Positions 2,025-58,569 of a DNA stretch of 64,000 bases are shown piece after piece. The stretch spans positions 4,045,146 to 4,109,145 of the forward strand of contig CAVSKO010000002.1 of assembly GCA_963728545.1 (NCBI GenBank), given 5' to 3'. The DNA comes from Blastocatellia bacterium (GTDB lineage: Bacteria > Acidobacteriota > Blastocatellia > UBA7656). A program made the translations under genes and the position numbers. Below the pieces are notes generated by a model that was not told the DNA's origin, did no database searches, and saw nothing but the letters and a program-made list of their open reading frames with translations. Within the stretch, counting starts at the first letter, position 1, and every line of letters starts with the position of its first letter.

Positions 2025-2249
2025 GAGGGATTTTGAAAAGCCTCGAAGAGGCGAAATTCAATAGCCTGGGGCGCTAGCCCCAGGTCGTGATTGTTGGTTT
2101 ATAAAAGCCCTGAAAGGGCGAAATAATCAGAACGATTTATTTCGCCCTTTCAGGGCTTGCTGTCTTAGGCGTGCGTTACCCGGCGCGATGCGCCGGGCTA
2201 TTGAATTTCGCCTCTTCGAGGCTTTTGAACTATCTTTTCATACATCCTC
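2025..2249. mobile_element. MITE-like element carrying a REP/REPIN-type long hairpin, copy 1
   Basis: Perfect 31-bp inverted repeat 2036-2066 / 2196-2226; inner AGCCCTGAAAGGGCG palindromes; outer imperfect 16-bp TIR; second copy of the same length at 58345-58569. Confidence 0.8.
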
Positions 2250-44208: not shown

Positions 44209-44281
44209 CAGGGGTACCAGGATTCGAACCCGGCCTTACGGTTTTGGAGACCGCCGTGCTAGCCGCTAACACTATACCCCT
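44209..44281 (-). tRNA. tRNA-Trp (CCA); 3-prime CCA not encoded
   Basis: AGGGGTA...CTCCAAA...GGTTCGAATCC...TACCCCTG cloverleaf. Confidence 0.95.
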
Positions 44282-44336
44282 ACACCAATTTTAGATTTCA
44301 GATTAAGAGACAGTGCGAGCCGTTTTTAATCCAAAA

Positions 44337-44489
44337 TCACTTCGTCTCTCTGTGCGGCTTGTGGTTCCTACACGTATTGCAGAATTTCTTAAATTCAAGC
44401 CGATCCGGTTTCTTCTTTTTATTCTTAGTCGTAACATAGTTACGATTCTTGCATTCGGTGCATTGAAGCACAATGTTATCTCTCGGCAT
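44337..44489 (-). CDS. rpmG: 50S ribosomal protein L33, Zn-binding form (not in the ORF track)
   Basis: Translated by hand: [50 protein letters not shown]. Confidence 0.96.
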
Positions 44490-44603
44490 AATCCCTCTAC
44501 TAAGAACCTTAAATTATATCAGCAACCTCGATGCCGCACCATCACAAACGCGCTGATCGGCAGAAGTGTTCTATATAACGCCTTTGCGGTAAGCCCGCGA
44601 TAC

Positions 44604-45791
<1,188 letters not shown>

Positions 45792-45871
45792 ATCTCTCCT
45801 ATATTCAGCCTGTGATTAATCCAGCAAGATTTCGGTAATCCGTGCAGCTTAACTGGCCGGTAATCCTGCAA

Positions 45872-45946
<75 letters not shown>

Positions 45947-45977
45947 ACTCATCCCTCGCGCCGAAGTGAAGTAACAA

Positions 45978-46052
<75 letters not shown>

Positions 46053-46059
46053 CCGCGAA

Positions 46060-46177
46060 AGGATAAAGGATGAGGGATAAGGGATGAAAAGAGCGTTTCT
46101 CTTAAACTCCTTTTCATCCGCCGCGTGCGAAGCACATCATCGGCCAAATTCATCCCTCCGCCTTCATCCTTCGATCC
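46060..46177. repeat. Inverted 7-nt tandem repeats (GGATGAA / TTCATCC)
   Basis: AGGATAAAGGATGAGGGATAAGGGATGAA ... TTCATCCCTCCGCCTTCATCCTT between tRNA-Tyr and tRNA-Gly; same family at 51278-51456. Confidence 0.8.
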
Positions 46178-46265
46178 TGGTGCTGGGGGTAGGATTCGAA
46201 CCTACGTAGAGCCTAAGCCCGCCGGGTTTACAGCCCGGTGCCATTAACCACTCGACCACCCCAGC
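46178..46265 (-). tRNA. tRNA-Tyr (GUA)
   Basis: GCTGGGG...CTGTAAA...long variable arm...GGTTCGAATCC...CCCCAGCACCA. Confidence 0.97.
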
Positions 46266-46362
46266 ACTTTCAACCCAGTGACGAGTGATATTTGATTATC
46301 ACTCTCGGAAAACCTGTGAGGGGATAGCCCTCTGTCCCGCTGAGCACAAATCGAAAACGATC

Positions 46363-46391
46363 ATTTTAGCCAACTCACCCCCGCTACGCAA
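46363..46391 (-). promoter_or_regulatory. Putative sigma-70 promoter for the tRNA-Tyr/Gly/Thr-tuf operon
   Basis: Minus strand TTGCGT-N17-TAAAAT. Confidence 0.6.
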
Positions 46392-46408
46392 GCTTTTTGA
46401 AACGTCTC

Positions 46409-49084
46409 TCATTCGTTAAGGGCTCTGCCCGTAAGGCTCGCGATCACGATCGCAAGCTCGGCAGGCTCAACCGGCTTGGGCACGTGCATCTGGTAGCCTG
46501 ATGAAAGAGCGCGCATACGATCTTCGACCCTCGCGTGCGCCGTTAAAGCCACGGCTGGCAGTCGCCCCCCTTGCTCGGCTTCCTTCGCTCGCAACTTGCG
46601 TATCAGCGTATATCCGTCCTCGCCGGGCATCTCTATATCCGACACAATCACGTCCGGTTCCCACTCCTCTACCTCGGCAAGAGCTTCGGAAACCGAAGCG
46701 CATGTCCTCACGCTGGCTTTGCACTGTTCGAGCACGGCTATAAGCAGACGGCGCGCATCCTCTTCGTCGTCAACGACCAGCACCCGCACCCCCTCAAGCC
46801 CGGGAGGACAACTGAACGACACATCCGCCATCCCGCTGTATTCCACCCGCTCCGGCTGGGCGGTTTCCGGCTCATGGTGAATCACCCTCAAAGGCAGCTT
46901 CACCGTAAAGGTCGCGCCAAAATTCTCTCCCGCGCTATCTGCGCGAACCGTGCCGCCATGCATTTCCACGATATGGCGCACTATGGAAAGCCCTAGCCCA
47001 AGCCCTCCGTGCGAGCGCGTGAGCGTGGAGTCGGCCTGGCGAAAACGGTCAAAGACGAAAGGCAAGAATTCCGGCCCGATTCCCTTCCCCGTATCGCTCA
47101 CAATTATTTCTATGTGAGAGTTCACACGCTCAAGACGGACCTGCACGCTTCCATCCTTCGGCGTGAATTTTAAGGCGTTTGAAAGAAGATTCCACAAGAC
47201 TTGCTGCAAGCGATCAGGGTCGCCCGAGATTATGCCCGCCCACGGGTCGAGCACTGTTTGCAGCCGGACGTTTTTGGCTTCGGCAGCCGGGCGCACGGCA
47301 TCTATTGCCGCGTTGATGACCGCGACAGGCTCGACCGGGCGTATGTCGAGCCGGAGCTTTCCGGTGATGATGCGCGAAACGTCGAGCAGGTCTTCTATGA
47401 GCTGCGCCTGCGACTTGGCGTTACGCTCTATGGTTTCAAGCGCCTGTGACGCGGTCTCCGCATCGAACCTGTTGGTTCTCAACATTCGCGACCAGCCGAG
47501 AATGGCATTCAAAGGCGTCCGCAACTCGTGCGAGACGGTGGCCAGGAAATCATCCTTTAGCCGGCTTGCTTCCTGCGATTCCTTATAGAGCCGCGCATTG
47601 TCGATGGCCTGCGCCGCGCGGCGAGCCAGGTCTTCGGCCAGGGCCAGATCGTCCTCATCATAACGATGGCCCGATTCTGCCGACACAAACGTGATAGCGC
47701 CGAGCGTTCGCCCCCGCGCCACCAGCGGCACCAACATGAAAGAGCGCGGCTTCAGCTCTCGCGCGATTCTGAGATGCTCTTCATCGCGCGCCATCGCTAC
47801 CAGAAGCGAATCGGTCAGTTCGGATACCAGCACGGAGTGTCCCGATTGCAGCACTTCCTTAAGCGGACCGGGCCGGGATGCATCAACCGGGTAGCGGCGG
47901 CTTAGCTCCCGCATAAGCTCGACCTTCTTCGGATCGATATGAGCAAGGGCCAGGCGCTCTATCTGTCCCTGCTCATCTATGATATCAACGACGCAATAAT
48001 CGGCGATGCGAGGCACAGATAGCTGGGCCATGACCTTCAATGTCGTCTCGTAGCTGAGCGAGCTTGCAAGCGCCGCGCTCGCTTCGGCCAGAAAGCGCAG
48101 CGATTCTTCGGATCGTTTTTGATCCTCTATATCGGTGCTGGTCCCGAACCATTTGATTATCGCTCCATCCTCATCGCGGAGCGGCACAGCCTTGCCCAGA
48201 TGCCAGCGATAATCGCCGTCCGAAGCCCTGCGAAAACGGTATTCGACTTGATAGTATTCACCCGTCTCTATCGAGTGGGTCCATCGCTCAAGGCAAATTT
48301 GTAAATCATCCGGGTGCAAGACGGCCTGCCAGCCCCAGCCCTTAGTCTCTTCAAAGGTCAACCCGGTGTACTCGCACCACCGCCGGTTGAAGTAATCCGT
48401 ATAACCGTCCGGCTCTGCCGTCCATACGATTTGCGGGACCTGTTCGGCCAGAAAGCGATAACGCTGTTCGCTGGCTTTAGCCTGGGCGCGCTCGCGTTGC
48501 GCTATTTCAAACAGCCGCGCATTATCGATAGCTATTGCGGCCTGCGCTGCAAGCCCTACGGCAAGGCTTTCGTGGCGTTCGTCAAAGACGCCTGCTTCCG
48601 GGTGGCCGAAGAAAAGCCCGCCCAGCACTTCGCCCGAACGCGAGATGACCGGGACCGCGAGATAGCTGACGACGGGCAGGTGGCCGGGCGGGATGCCGTA
48701 ATAAGGTGAGTTCTTGCCGTAGCGCGGGTCTTGTTTGACATCCCTTATGCGTATCACGCCTTCGCCGCGAAAAGTCGGGCCGAACATGTCGGTAGCCCTC
48801 GGCATGGGGAAGTGCGCGAAGTGTTCTATCGGAACTCCCGAAAGCGTGTAGAGCATGTAAGACTCGCCGCGCGTGTCTATTACATTATAAAAGAACGAGC
48901 CGAAGCACGCGCCGGTCAATTCAGTCGCGGCGTCGGTCAAGACCTGCACGAGCTTTTTCAAGTCCAATTCAGCCGACAGCGTTTGCCCGACGCGATTTAT
49001 AGTCTCAATAATCTCGTTCTGCTCGCGCAGGCTATCTTGCGACCGGCGACCCGACTCCTGTCCACTCATATTCGTAACCTTCAT
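46409..49084 (-). CDS. Cytoplasmic hybrid sensor histidine kinase (GAF-PAS-GAF-HisKA-HATPase-REC)
   Basis: [31 protein letters not shown], receiver VLVVDD...SDIEMP...KP. Confidence 0.96.
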
Positions 49085-49309
49085 TCATTATTCTCTCAAC
49101 GGGGCTCTAGAAAGCATTAACTGTACTGTTATTACTTGCGTATAGGCCAAAGGCGCACCAATCCTTTACATAAACGGCATACAAAGTATGATTAGGGCAA
49201 CGCTTATGCCAATAAACATATTTCGCTGATTATGAATCGAGGTTGAATGTTTTTATAGGCGCGGACTTGCGAACAGATCAAGTGATGGAATTTCACCTTT
49301 GAGATGAGG

Positions 49310-49383
49310 AGCCGGTGGAGGGATTCGAACCCACGACATCCTGATTACAAATCAGGCGCTCTGGCCAACTGAGCTACACCGGC
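49310..49383 (-). tRNA. tRNA-Thr (UGU); followed by CCT rather than CCA
   Basis: GCCGGTG...TTTGTAA...GGTTCGAATCC...CACCGGCT. Confidence 0.95.
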
Positions 49384-52673: not shown

Positions 52674-53681
52674 ATGACGACAAAAACAAATCGGCAATGG
52701 CGATTGATTGCGCGCCCCGTAGGCAGGCTCAAAGAGTCGGATTTTCAGTTCACAGAAGAGCCCGTGCCCGCGCTCGGCGAAGGTCAGGTCCTGGTTCGCA
52801 ACCTCTATCTATCTCTCGACCCGACAAACCGTGGATGGGCTAACGAGACGGCGACCTACATGCCTGCTATTCAGCTCGGCGACGTGATGCGAGGAGGCGC
52901 TACCGGCGTTGTAGAGCAGTCTCGCAATCCCAATTTCAGCGAAGGGACTTATGTGCAAGGTCTGCTCGGATGGCAGGACTATGCCGTCACAGACGGAACC
53001 GGTCTGACCGCGCTGCCGAACAACCCGGCCATTCCGTTGACGGCTTACCAGGGCCTGTTCGGTCCCATAGGTTTCACGGCTTATTACGGATTGCTCGACA
53101 TAGGCAAGCCTCAAGCCGGTGAAACGCTCGTAGTGTCGGCGGCGGCGGGCGCAGTCGGTTCGCTCGTCGGGCAGATAGGCAAGATCAAAGGCTGTCGCGT
53201 CGTCGGCATCGCGGGCAGCGATGAAAAATGCAAGTGGATAACCGAAGACCTTGGATTCGACGCAGCGATCAACTACAAAGCCGAGCCGGTGCTTGAAAGC
53301 TTGAAGAGACATTGCCCCGACGGAATCGACATTGATTTTGAAAACGTCGGCGGCGAGATAATGGACGCCGTCCTGGCCCTGATCAACTTCAAAGCGCGAA
53401 TAGCGCTTTGCGGATTGATCTCGCAATACAACGCCACAGAGCCCGTCCCCGGCCCGTACAACTTCGTAAACATCTTGATAAAGCGCGCGCGCGTCGAGGG
53501 CTTCATCGTGCTGGATTATATGAATAACCCACAGGAAGCCATAGCCGACCTGGGCAAGTGGCTGGTCGAAGGCAAAATCAAGTATCGCATAGACGAGGTC
53601 GAAGGGCTTGAGCATGCTCCCGCGGCGCTCAACCGGCTGTTTGACGGGGCGAACATCGGAAAGCTACTGGTCAAGCTGTGA
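52674..53681 (+). CDS. NADP-dependent oxidoreductase (CurA/PTGR1-like MDR family)
   Basis: YLSLDP, VSAAAGAVGS, GIAGSDEK, FENVGG, LCGLISQYN, GANIGK. Confidence 0.94.
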   Translation: MTTKTNRQWRLIARPVGRLKESDFQFTEEPVPALGEGQVLVRNLYLSLDPTNRGWANETATYMPAIQLGDVMRGGATGVVEQSRNPNFSEGTYVQGLLGWQDYAVTDGTGLTALPNNPAIPLTAYQGLFGPIGFTAYYGLLDIGKPQAGETLVVSAAAGAVGSLVGQIGKIKGCRVVGIAGSDEKCKWITEDLGFDAAINYKAEPVLESLKRHCPDGIDIDFENVGGEIMDAVLALINFKARIALCGLISQYNATEPVPGPYNFVNILIKRARVEGFIVLDYMNNPQEAIADLGKWLVEGKIKYRIDEVEGLEHAPAALNRLFDGANIGKLLVKL

Positions 53682-53758
53682 GGCGCTACATATGGGCCGG
53701 AGCGGTCGGCTAATTACTATTAGTTGTGTAATTTCTGCCTGCATAGCTCACTTTTTTC

Positions 53759-53787
53759 TTGACATAAAAAACCGATGTGCTTACTAT
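53759..53787 (+). promoter_or_regulatory. Near-consensus sigma-70 promoter
   Basis: TTGACA-N17-TACTAT. Confidence 0.75.
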
Positions 53788-53793
53788 CCGTTG

Positions 53794-54051
53794 TAACACC
53801 GGAAAGGAGGTGGTCCAAAGCAATGATAAGTTTCAGACCAGGTGAGGTGGCTGCGGCCTGAGCGTGGCTTAGCCGCACATATGCGGCTGACGGTAGACGG
53901 CGAAAGGTCTCCAAGAGAGATTTTGCTCGATGCAGGATCAGCGCGCTCACACTTAGCATTTGTGGATAGGCCACAGGTCAATCCCAACAGTCCACCGCAA
54001 GCCCCGACGCAGGGCGTCGTTAATTCGATTTGCCGCGTCGGGGCTTGTTTG
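53794..54051 (+). ncRNA. Candidate small RNA / sORF transcript with an extended anti-16S sequence and a 12-aa ORF (53823-53861)
   Basis: Own promoter; AAAGGAGGTGGTCC at 53803-53816; ORF MISFRPGEVAAA; internal hairpins; 13-bp terminal stem 53998-54047 followed by TTT. Confidence 0.55.
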
Positions 54052-54198
54052 CTTCCTGAGCAATTCCAACCCCACATAAAACCTTCCTCGATCACCGTAT
54101 CGCGCATCTATTAGCGGCTTTTTGTTTGACACGGCTGAGCGCGCGCGTCCACAATAAGCTTCATAAGCTCCAGATCTTGAATAAGCCGGAGGTCACCT

Positions 54199-56743
54199 AT
54201 GTCGACTGAAACCGTTGATTCTGCCAAGCCCGGAGTCATAAATGAGTATCCAGACATCGTAGGGGCAAAGCCTGAAAATCCGTATCTCGCTTCATTCCGC
54301 CCTTACATTCCTCCACACGTAAAATTACGCGAGCTTACGCCGATGCCTTTAATCGTCGGCACGCTGCTCGGCCTGGTCTTTGGCGCGTCGTCGCTGTACC
54401 TGGTATTGAAAACCGGGTTGACCGTCAGCGCCTCGATTCCTGTCGCCGTCATCTTCGATCACGCTCTTTCGATTGCTGTCGAAAGTGGGGCTGAGGAACG
54501 CCACGATTTTAGAGAACAACATAGTTCAGACCGCAGGCTCGGCAGGGGAATCTATCGCCTTCGGCGTGGGCGTGACTATGCCTGCCATCTTGATTTTAGG
54601 GTTCGACCTGGAGATTACGCGCGTGATGCTGGTCGCGTTGCTGGGCGGGCTGCTCGGGATTTTGATGATGATCCCTCTCAGGCGCGCGCTCATCGTTCAG
54701 CAACACGGCTTTTTGAAATACCCCGAAGGGACCGCCTGCGCCGAAGTGCTCAAGGCAGGGGCCGACGAAGAATCGCGCGCGGCTGCATCGCAGGGGGCAA
54801 AAGATAAAACGGCAACAGAGGTTCGCGCCCTGCCCATCTTCGTGGGGCTCGGACTCGGCTTTTTCTATAAAGTCGCGATGGATCTAAAGAGTTGGAAAGA
54901 AGCGCCGGAAAGAGTCTTTGACAAGCCTTTCAGCGCCGGCTCTATCTCTGCCGAGATCAACCCTGCGCTGCTCGGCGTCGGCTACATCATCGGCCCGCGC
55001 ATCGCTGCCATTATGTGCGCGGGCGGCGTGCTGGCCTACCTGGTTCTAATCCCGCTCATAAAATTCTTTGGCGAAGGCATGACTGGGGTGCTTGCGCCGG
55101 GCGAAATGCCCATCAGCCAGATGAGTCCGGGTGACATACGCAGCGCCTACATCCTTTACATAGGCGCGGGAGCCGTAGCGGCGGGCGGCATCATCAGTCT
55201 CTTCCGCTCGCTCCCGACGATCTGGAGCGGGTTAAAGGGAGGGCTTAAAGATTTGAAAGGCGGCCAGGCCGCAAGCGCAGCCGCGCCCCGCACCGACCAG
55301 GACCTTTCGATGAAGATTGTTGTCGGCGGAATCATCCTGCTGCTCCTTTTGATAATGGTCGTTCCTTATTTGAATCTTCAATGGAACATCCTGGGCGCGA
55401 TACTCATCGTAGCGTTCGGCTTTCTGTTCGTCACCGTCTCGTCACGACTGACCGGAGAGATCGGCTCGTCGTCAAACCCGATCTCGGGCATGACCGTGGC
55501 GACGTTGCTGCTGACCTGCCTGATCTTTTTAGTGGTCGGATGGGTAGGCCCGCCGTATTTCGTAACGGCGCTTTCAATCGGCGGCATCGTCTGCATCGCG
55601 GCATCAAACGGCGGAACAACGTCGCAGGATTTGAAGACAGGCTTTCTCGTAGGCGCGACTCCGAAGTACCAGCAGGTAGCCATTCTCATCGGCGCTCTTT
55701 CTTCGGCCCTCATACTGGGGCCGATACTGCTTGCACTAAACGATGCCGGAACAGTCTATGTGCCGCCGACGACCCTTGAGCAAATGAAGGGGGATACTGT
55801 GCAGATAAATCCGGCGGCCGTCCGAGCGCTTCCGGCTTACACCGATGAAGAGAAACCTCCCACGCCCGGCAATTACCGCGTCTTCAACAACGAGCCGGGA
55901 AACCCGGCTGCGGTCGAAGGGCTTGACGCCGGAGAATACCTCGTAGACGAATCGGGCACTGTCGTGTTTAAACGTCAAATCCTGCGCGCAGACGTTTCGC
56001 AGTTGACTGAAAAAGAGACGTTGCACGGGTCTCAGGGTGCGGCCGACCCCAACTCTTATTATGTCTGGCACCGCTTCAACAGCGAGACGGGGACTTCGCG
56101 CAAATATCTCGTAAACGATCAAGGCGTGCCCGTATACCTGGCCGACCCGGCGATAAACGGCGTGCACAAAGTAAGGCCTGACGGGACGACCGCGACGAAA
56201 TATGACGCGCCAAAGGCGGTCCTGATGTCTTATATCATCAACGGCATTCTAAGCCATCGGTTGCCCTGGGCACTCGTGCTTCTGGGCGTGATGATAGCGA
56301 TAGTACTTGAGATGGCCGGAATTCCGTCGCTGGCATTCGCAGTCGGCGTCTACCTGCCGCTTTCGGCCTCGACGCCGATCCTGGTCGGCGGAATGATTCG
56401 CTGGCTTGTCGACAAATATTTGCGCAGGAAGCTCAGGCACCAGAACCTTTCCGAAGAAGAACTGGTTGCCGAAGGCGACCGCAGCCCCGGCGTGTTGATG
56501 GCGTCAGGCTACATCGCGGGCGGCGCGCTGGCAGGTATCATATATGCCATCGTGAATGGTTATCCAAGCCTCGCCACTTTTAATAAGAACGTCGAGGAAT
56601 GGTCAAAAGCAAACAACCCGTTCTTTAACGGTCCGTATGCCGATTTGCTGGCACTGATTCCCTTCCTCATTCTGACGATCTTGCTTTACCTGGCCGGGCG
56701 AGAAATGATTCTCGCCGGACGACGCAACAGGTCAAGCGGTTGA
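54199..56743 (+). CDS. OPT-family oligopeptide transporter, +1 frameshift near 54454 (probable sequence error)
   Basis: LKTGLTVSASIPVAV, ILENNIVQTAGSAGES, YPEGTACAEVL, SSSNPISGM, QDLKTG; deleting one T gives VISITLFRLLSKVG. Confidence 0.9.
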
Positions 56744-58344: not shown

Positions 58345-58569
58345 GGGGTTTTTTGAAAAGCCTCGAAGAGGCGAAATTCAATAGCCTGGGGCGCTAGCCC
58401 CAGGTCAGCGCCAAGCATAACGACAAGCCCTGTAAGGGCGAAATATATCTTCGGGTTATTTCGCCCTTACAGGGCTTGTCGTTATTCGCCATCTGTTACC
58501 CGGCGCGATGCGCCGGGCTATCGAATTTCGCCTCTTCGAGGCTTTTGAACTATCTTTTCAGGCATCCTC
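58345..58569. mobile_element. MITE-like element carrying a REP/REPIN-type hairpin, copy 2, flanked by TAA...TAA
   Basis: Colinear with 2025-2249; lies within GTGATGA / TCATCAC heptamer arms (58277-58300, 58576-58592). Confidence 0.8.

Follow-up and report, generated by a model that had tools for sequence, protein, structure and literature searches.

An acidobacterial member of the Ms_IGR-5 small RNA family carries a complement of the 16S rRNA tail and a short reading frame of conserved geometry

In the 64,000-nt stretch of a Blastocatellia bacterium genome analyzed here (assembly GCA_963728545.1, contig CAVSKO010000002.1, positions 4,045,146 to 4,109,145 of the forward strand; hereafter the window), a unit of ~260 nt lies between a gene for a zinc-type oxidoreductase (52674-53681) and a gene for an OPT transporter. 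It consists of a promoter, a complement of the 16S rRNA 3' end, an open reading frame (ORF) of 12 codons and a terminal stem-loop (Table 1). These elements had been pointed out in a preliminary description of the DNA, which proposed a stand-alone and novel transcript. Sequence comparison identifies the locus as an acidobacterial member of a known family of small RNAs (sRNAs), Ms_IGR-5; the kind itself is not new.

Table 1. Features of the Ms_IGR-5 locus in window coordinates
Feature	Position	Strand	Basis or remark
Promoter, sigma-70-like: −35 TTGACA (53759-53764), 17-nt spacer, −10 TACTAT (53782-53787)	53759-53787	+	promoter scan, 10/12 matches
Predicted small RNA of ~260 nt, Ms_IGR-5 family	53795-54054	+	RF02471 match 53796-54053; fold
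P0 helix, 5' strand CACC	53797-53800	+	pairs with GGUG 53841-53844 in the minimum free energy (MFE) structure
Box 1, GGAAAGGAGGUGGUCC, extended Shine-Dalgarno (SD) sequence, complement of the whole free 16S 3' tail	53801-53816	+	16S 3' end of the same genome
P1 hairpin: outer stem UGGUC/GACCA, inner stem AAGC/GUUU, start codon in the loop	53811-53840	+	predicted fold
Mini-ORF: ATG, 11 sense codons and TGA; peptide MISFRPGEVAAA	53823-53861	+	frame conserved in homologues
Box 2, GUGAGGUGG	53842-53850	+	GUG in P0; GGUGG opens the P2 5' strand
P2 helix, 5' strand GGUGGCUG	53846-53853	+	begins with GGUGG of box 2
Variable central domain, with hairpin AGCCGCA/UGCGGCU (53871-53888)	53862-53979	+	RNAalifold
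Hairpin TGTGG/CCACA	53961-53975	+	seen in the sequence
AAUCCC motif (AAUYCC in most homologues)	53980-53985	+	conserved
P2 helix, 3' strand CAG-U-CCACC	53988-53996	+	MFE structure and RNAalifold
Terminal branched stem-loop AAGCCCCGACGC / GCGUCGGGGCUU with U-rich tail, putative intrinsic terminator	53999-54054	+	predicted fold

Taken alone the promoter match is weak, since the scan returned two promoter-like sites in 2 kb as compared to 1.1 ± 1.2 in shuffled sequences. All 11 relatives examined in the host's family carry the identical −35/−10 pair, with the same spacing, ahead of the RNA. The RNA is predicted to start at A53795 or A53796, within AACACC, and to end in the U-rich tail. Its fold (53794-54055) has an MFE of −111.9 kcal/mol with a z-score of −5.0, a stability that none of 200 shuffled sequences reached. 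The terminal stem, previously given as 13 bp, is present with a length of 12 bp (53999-54010 with 54035-54046) and is followed by UUGUUUGCUU; the tail 3' of the branched stem (53999-54046) reads TTGTTTGCTT. This stem was not among the calls of a simple terminator scan, and its role as a terminator is suggested by the fold.

The genes around the RNA change from group to group. OPT adjoins it in nine of 11 loci from the host's family, in one of them in another arrangement; these loci come from 11 of the 14 family genomes with a match. At 17 acidobacterial loci from other parts of the phylum it has unrelated neighbours, often on the opposite strand. Outside the family they include genes for a flavoprotein, an aminotransferase, Usp, an amidohydrolase, ThiG and ZIP, among others, which indicates a free-standing gene and not a leader. 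The suggestion that the element is a leader or switch for the downstream gene therefore fails, as the neighbours are not conserved beyond the family. Moreover, the promoter-like site noted before for the OPT gene itself was found by the promoter scan, 70 nt past the terminator. Given the Rfam match described below (E = 2.7e-8), the z-score of the fold and hundreds of homologues, the locus is a real feature beyond chance and probably encodes a separately transcribed small RNA. The conserved promoter, the single copy per genome and the unconserved neighbours support a stand-alone gene running from promoter to putative terminator, as first proposed.

A search against Rfam 15 identified 53796-54053 as Ms_IGR-5 (RF02471, 50.2 bits against a gathering score of 45), with a match that spans the whole model (positions 1-184) and is the only one in the genome. 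The preliminary description had held that a hit to a known Rfam family would remove the novelty of the element, and by that reasoning the claim of novelty fails, because a known family is matched above its cut-off. Rfam describes Ms_IGR-5 as 'Actinobacteria sRNA', and IGR-5 of Mycobacterium smegmatis (alias ncMSMEG15794c) lies between MSMEG_5794 and MSMEG_5795. The 5' ACAC, the GGAAGGAGGUGGUCC box and GUGAGGUGGCUGC of the locus are blocks identical to the RF02471 consensus and also occur in our alignments A1-A3. Box 1, the frame of the mini-ORF, box 2, a 3' element AAUYCC...CAG.CACC and the terminal hairpin are likewise common to both; split into the codons of the mini-ORF, the Rfam consensus is UUG AUU GAU UUA UGG ACA UGU GAG GUG GCU GCC.... 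Unlike a typical Ms_IGR-5, the RNA described here has an acidobacterial and not an actinobacterial host, its nearest matches being metagenome-assembled genomes (MAGs) of Blastocatellia. Its central domain measures 106 nt compared with 32 in the model, its P2 helix has a one-base bulge, and its stop codon is UGA where most members have UAG. Neither P0 nor P2 as found here is part of the structure line in Rfam.

CC2171 (RF01867) was the only other Rfam family with any score for the window (16.6 bits, E = 0.34, against a cut-off of 75). The alignment is limited to a hairpin and the 5' box, which the two families have in common (GAAAGGAGGUGAUCC). In Caulobacter, CC2171 is a stand-alone sRNA with a terminator at its end; it opens with GAAAGGAGGUGAUCCAG, which is fully complementary to the 16S tail, and it may be kin to Ms_IGR-5 within one wider class. 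A Rhodobacteraceae genome has a CC2171-like RNA (locus L269, 1501-1676, minus strand; 37 bits, under the cut-off) with GAAAGGAGGUGGUCCAGUG at its start and an ORF of 17 codons. In this one alphaproteobacterial example GAGGUG is out of the ORF frame, and the CAC/GUG clamp described below is not evident.

The 16S rRNA gene of the same genome ends ...CUGGAUCACCUCCUUUCU (also written ...CTGGATCACCTCCTTTCT). On this end we confirmed the complementarity of 14 nt with one G-U pair (53803-53816, AAAGGAGGTGGTCC) that had been noted from a typical 16S sequence, and it extends to 16 contiguous pairs with two G-U over the whole of box 1 (53801-53816, GGAAAGGAGGTGGTCC; −31.7 kcal/mol). The 16S probe was 22 nt long, including six bases that are paired in ribosomal helix 45. 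No other site on either strand of the window pairs as strongly with the 16S end as box 1, the next best reaching −26.0 and the background averaging −9.9 (sd 3.1) over 42,652 positions. The 12-mer AAGGAGGTGRTC was found twice in the 9.27-Mb genome, at this locus and antisense to the 16S gene, and a reversed-pattern control once. In the MFE structure box 1 is single-stranded except for its final bases, and its duplex with the 16S tail compares with −16.9 kcal/mol for the local fold of P0 and P1. The AAGGAGGTGGTC portion is invariant in alignments A2 and A3, in which most rows were retrieved by that very string.

A variant of box 1 occurs in an acidobacterial family (loci L139, L140, L141, L143 and L144), where it reads GGAGG(A/U)UGAUCCAGCC, with AGUC in one of them. 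With one extra base, the complement extends far past the free tail and reaches helix 45 of the 16S rRNA, on its 3' strand; in some acidobacteria it runs on into GAUCCAGCC, which is that strand.

Two pattern scans over 185,579 species genomes, one for a GGUC form and one for a GAUC form, gave at least 123 and at least 120 matches, respectively; counts from these scans refer to the matches listed. In 122 of the 123 GGUC matches an in-frame start codon was combined with a stop exactly five codons after GAG, and the lone failure is a chance match in a Rhodobacteraceae genome. Start codons were TTG (55), ATG (50) and GTG (17), stop codons TAG (102), TGA (13) and TAA (7), and the ORF ranged from 11 to 18 codons with 98 at 12. 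The start codon, 12 nt past GGAGG in the window, lies 5 to 14 nt past it in these homologues. Among the GAUC matches 112 of 120 have the stop at the conserved place. Three of the exceptions stop one codon later (two of them family-like), and the five without a nearby stop resemble ordinary genes or chance matches. Model-based matches, for which box 2 was not required, gave a similar picture by eye, with the stop retained in 17 of 18 credible ones and GAGGUG present in all 18.

The preliminary description had named conservation of frame and stop as a check on the ORF. Start and stop in the frame of the ORF were found in 215 of 222 distinct sequences listed, while the other two frames gave 33 and 0. 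Since the distance between box 1 and box 2 falls into all three modulo-3 classes (90, 85 and 47), the start codon shifts and stays in frame with box 2. The placement of the stop exactly five codons after GAG GUG is kept in nearly all of the homologues listed and is shared by the ORF of the window; it is a feature derived in this analysis and not part of Rfam's description. One acidobacterial locus (L143, G111:C16), the exception among the credible model-based matches, has TAT in place of the conserved stop and adjoins a gene for a DDE-type transposase; it may be a decaying copy.

The encoded peptide shows another pattern. Codons 2-4 are without an excess of variation at third positions, the last residue is variable, and there is no codon-position periodicity of variation among the homologues of the mini-ORF. 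The VAAA at the C-terminus had been likened to ClpX/SsrA-type degrons. The degron idea fails, as no C-terminal (L)AA is conserved and the final three positions differ freely from homologue to homologue (AAR, AAS, AVS, AET, TAG, VAS, VAP, ALF and others), AAA being limited to a few sequences of Blastocatellia type. Comparison of the homologues thus strongly supports that the phyla share the start, frame and stop position of the ORF, and that they do not share the peptide, beyond what the RNA helices dictate.

Some variants and alternative frames were noted at the locus and in its homologues. In six homologues (L053, L058, L072, L097, L149 and L216; record titles Planctomycetota, Rokubacteria/Methylomirabilota and Thermodesulfobacteriota) the mini-ORF ends ...GAGGUGGUG(A/C/G)CC(U/C)CC-stop, mostly with CCUCC and in one with CCCCC, which places an anti-SD-like string directly before the stop in most of them. 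A +1 frameshift at the stop into a frame of 90 codons (53842-54114) was considered and rejected, as there is no conserved slippery codon and no Pfam match, and the lengths differ among homologues. Antisense ORFs at 53784-54107 (107 aa) and 53720-53974 (84 aa) matched no Pfam family.

The conserved boxes also take part in predicted helices. P0 covaries through all four Watson-Crick forms: in the 123 of 136 sequences with a locatable CAC, the nucleotide following CAC and the one preceding GUG formed G:C in 74, A:U in 16, C:G in 10, U:A in 9 and G:U in 1, with 13 mismatches, and the window version is CACC/GGUG. The 5' strand of P1 is the end of box 1 (GGUCC). In P2 the GGUGG of box 2 and the next three to five bases face a 3' CAG-N-CACC across homologues. 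Its variable positions form 3.87 of 5 pairs with their own partner compared with 3.39 with the partners of other sequences, and none of 2000 permutations was as high. The stop-codon strand UGAGCGUG may pair with CGCGCUCA (53942-53949) in a further helix, P3, predicted by RNAalifold from six close relatives with one compensatory pair as weak support. P1, P2 and P3 were tested in a mixed alignment of 39 sequences, P0 being scored apart. There, 73.4% of cells were paired compared with 68.8 ± 0.7 after shuffling (0 of 500 as high), the covariation score was 0.233 against 0.175 in the control, and slid partners gave 21-47%; P2 alone reached 86.5%.

Box 2 accounts for the 'second SD-like GAGGTGG' of the preliminary description, which is indeed present within the ORF and is largely structural, being explained by P0 and P2. 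Both hairpins reported earlier downstream of the ORF are present as well, within a central domain whose length is highly variable among homologues. The AAUYCC motif is predicted to form a hairpin strand in the host's group and is an unpaired stretch in Rfam's model; inspection by eye only gave no convincing partner for it in the ORF loop of the window. Taken together, the fold models strongly support a closed form in which the 5' CACC and the 3' CAG-U-CCACC would clamp GUGAGGUGG through P0 and P2, and in this form box 1 is predicted to be an exposed bulge between P0 and P1.

The distribution of the family is wide. By the titles of the records, many of which are MAGs, the two pattern scans and a model of our own found relatives in at least ten phyla: Actinomycetota, Acidobacteriota, Methylomirabilota, Nitrospirota, Zixibacteria, Myxococcota, Chloroflexota, spirochaetes and others. 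Among the matches listed, the GGUC form is mostly from Actinomycetota and occurs also in Terriglobia, Blastocatellia, Bryobacterales, Rokubacteria, Nitrospirota, a planctomycete, Zixibacteria and Leptospirales, and the GAUC form was seen in Streptomyces, Kitasatospora, Nocardioides and Pyrinomonadaceae as well as in Thermodesulfobacteriota, Myxococcota, Methylomirabilota, Dehalococcoidia and Spirochaetia. In 151 genomes sampled across the phylum of the host, the Rfam model matched five at E <= 0.001, only the window's own locus being above the cut-off. Our model, built for the 5' domain from 48 seed sequences and from sequence only, matched 20 of these 151 genomes and 20 of 31 close relatives (same genus 2 of 2, same family 14 of 18, sister family 0 of 5), with at most one match per genome. 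Run on 17 diverse loci, the Rfam model placed examples from Mycolicibacterium, Streptomyces, Methylomirabilis and Zixibacteria above its cut-off, and those from Dehalococcoidia, Leptospirales, Thermodesulfobacteriota and Spirochaetia below it; eight had no score at E <= 0.01.

Expression of the family is documented in other bacteria, as far as the excerpts of the source papers tell. Homologues of Ms_IGR-5 in M. abscessus and M. smegmatis have ribosome footprints, with significant ribosomal reads (PMC4974804), Ms_IGR-5 is listed in RNA-seq transcriptomes of Streptomyces (PMC8079986, PMC8780764), and ncMSMEG15794c of M. smegmatis overlaps it (PMC10454040). IGR-5 of M. smegmatis is reported as NAD-capped with a +1A start and as 'validated but yet uncharacterized' (bioRxiv 10.1101/2021.12.14.472595), and CC2171 was confirmed by Northern blot in Methylorubrum, without known function (bioRxiv 10.1101/2022.01.24.477521). 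Within these excerpts, Northern blot and RNA-seq evidence for the family concerns actinobacterial members only. The mini-ORF is not described in the literature searched, which did not include the founding paper of Li et al. 2013.

For the host's own group, three studies of soil or sediment contributed RNA-library contigs (X15, X16 and X20; set X17 had none) that fall within 53794-54010. They are 170-196 nt long and stem from relatives that are 90-99% alike, and their ends and strand are not resolvable. There is no other cover across 53600-54300, and zero cover of the flanks is not evidence of absence. One X15 contig extends 153 nt upstream of 53794 in a relative, which makes DNA or read-through possible.

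Considering these results together, we propose that the RNA is a ribosome-docking mini-mRNA of the Ms_IGR-5 family, ~260 nt long, whose translation unzips its own fold, a proposal that we hold to be somewhat more probable than not overall. The 3' tail of the 16S rRNA in a 30S subunit would first pair with the exposed part of box 1, and growth of the duplex into GGUCC would displace P1 and free the start codon in its loop. The ribosome would then read 12 codons, opening P1, P0, P2 and the stop-codon helix in turn, and would terminate at a fixed point, 8 nt past GGUGG. These 8 nt equal the usual distance from the GGUGG of box 1 to the start codon (7-9 nt in most members listed). In this way the RNA may switch between a closed and a ribosome-opened state. 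Most likely the useful output would concern the RNA or the ribosome, for instance by reporting or holding free ribosomes, and not the peptide, although this last step is a guess. We favour such an effect over a peptide product, an untranslated decoy, a seed-pairing sRNA and an attenuator.

Several observations weigh against this proposal. No function was found for any member of Ms_IGR-5 in the literature searched, Li et al. 2013 not being covered, and the soil RNA-library contigs, which may include DNA, are the one direct hint of expression for the host, and a weak one. Box 1 and box 2 were fixed in both pattern scans, which makes their invariance there one of construction. In some members the full 16-bp duplex and the placement of the start codon may be incompatible. 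P1 and P3 are paired in 63-64% of cells in the mixed alignment, which is partly explained by a register shift of one base between actinobacterial and acidobacterial sequences. When box 2 was paired with downstream sequence, the energies did not surpass those of shuffled sequence (median z = −0.6; z below −2 in 13 of 136), leaving P2 to rest on covariation alone, and related sequences inflate the covariation statistics of the fold. Finally, 63 of 126 ORFs of 12 codons have Ser at codon 3, written with UCN as well as AGY codons, which hints slightly that the peptide could matter.

One alternative, which we regard as quite unlikely, is that the RNA is a base-pairing regulatory sRNA with a seed such as CCACC or AAUCCC that hits mRNAs, translation serving as the gate for exposure of the seed. 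Its motifs are conserved and single-stranded or bulged, and a ribosome that opens P2 would free the 3' CCACC. The most conserved elements nevertheless face the ribosome, and the phyla that carry the family include some with and some without Hfq-type systems.

A conserved micropeptide, M-x-x-x-R/W-T/P-R/C/G-E-V-A-x-x, for which the RNA merely serves as mRNA, is an improbable product in our view. It would be in line with the conserved start, frame and stop, with the shared E-V-A core, with the Ser codons mentioned above and, as far as the excerpt goes, with the published ribosome footprints on homologues. The conserved codons, however, overlie covarying helices, R/T/R being GGAC-N-CGUG of P1/P0 and E-V-A being GAGGUGGCU of P0/P2, whereas the N-terminal part and the last residue are free, the length varies and codon-position periodicity is lacking. 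A micropeptide would also leave ~190 nt of conserved, structured RNA past the ORF unexplained.

The preliminary description had further raised a ribosome-sequestering decoy, that is, a non-coding sponge in which box 1 binds 30S subunits without productive translation and the ORF is incidental. The maximal SD complement, the start codon within a hairpin and the spacing of 12 nt from GGAGG, which is longer than usual for start sites, are all compatible with a decoy. An incidental ORF would not hold an NTG start, a frame and a fixed stop in nearly all homologues despite the modulo-3 shifts, nor would it be expected that all three stop codons interchange at one position, and we regard this explanation as improbable. 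A cis-acting leader-peptide attenuator of the OPT gene is the least probable by far. In its favour, OPT adjoins the RNA in most loci of the host's family, and a short ORF followed by a terminator is a classical layout. Against it stand the unrelated neighbours in other groups, which often lie on the opposite strand, the separate promoter-like site of OPT, the absence of a conserved antiterminator alternative from the folds examined and, according to the excerpts cited above, the occurrence of the same RNA as a free sRNA in actinobacteria.

The proposed mini-mRNA can be compared with known systems in which short reading frames or RNA mimicry play a part. In attenuators of the trpL and ermCL type, translation of a tiny ORF remodels downstream helices, followed by a terminator; the layout is similar, while here there is no conserved downstream gene, no conserved antiterminator and no common sensing codons. 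The frameshift site of prfB (RF2) has an internal SD-like element at a fixed short distance from the stop codon. Box 2 near the stop is similar, whereas a conserved slippery codon is absent among the homologues, the last sense codon being GCC, CGC, AGC, ACU or others, and unlike in prfB the ORF ends at the stop in all members. The tag ORF of tmRNA lacks an SD sequence and a start codon, and the mini-ORF has both. A likeness of GGUCAAUCC to tRNA or tmRNA was considered and rejected, as ARAGORN finds nothing in 53600-54200, including no tmRNA (RF00023), and the true tmRNA lies elsewhere in the genome (174 bits). 6S RNA, an abundant small RNA that mimics the ideal substrate of a core machine, imitates an open promoter for RNA polymerase; the likeness to 6S RNA and Ms1 is in concept only, in that the present RNA would offer the ribosome an ideal mRNA start, and there is no sequence or structural relation.

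Other observations concern the remainder of the window. The OPT gene is split over two frames on the plus strand (54199-54807 and 54473-56743), with Pfam OPT positions 1-41 in the first ORF and 64-512 in the second; in one relative (L280) the gene is in one frame. This points to a frameshift near 54454-54475, meaning that the gene is a pseudogene or that the assembly is wrong at this place. The Acido-Lenti-1 RNA motif (RF01687) is matched three times, at 2039-2084 (minus strand), 2179-2223 (plus) and 58359-58404 (minus), and two of these matches score identically (46.4 bits) though 56 kb apart. Five tRNA genes lie on the minus strand within 44209-49383, three of them within 45875-46265.

The locus alone is ordinary, one more copy of a catalogued sRNA, and its interest lies in the family, which Rfam labels as actinobacterial and which occurs in at least ten phyla. 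This family joins the strongest possible ribosome-binding site with a mini-ORF of conserved geometry and unconserved peptide. A further reading, which we regard as rather unlikely, is that it represents an unrecognised multi-phylum RNA that acts on the ribosome itself, by gripping the entire free 3' tail of 16S rRNA and forcing one short round of translation, of fixed length, through its own fold. If true, its uses could be in gauging or parking free 30S or 70S ribosomes, or in protecting or proof-testing the 16S 3' end, and it would form a translation-side counterpart of 6S RNA and Ms1. If the ribosome is indeed the target, the Ms_IGR-5 family would be a widespread and unstudied regulator or sensor of translation.

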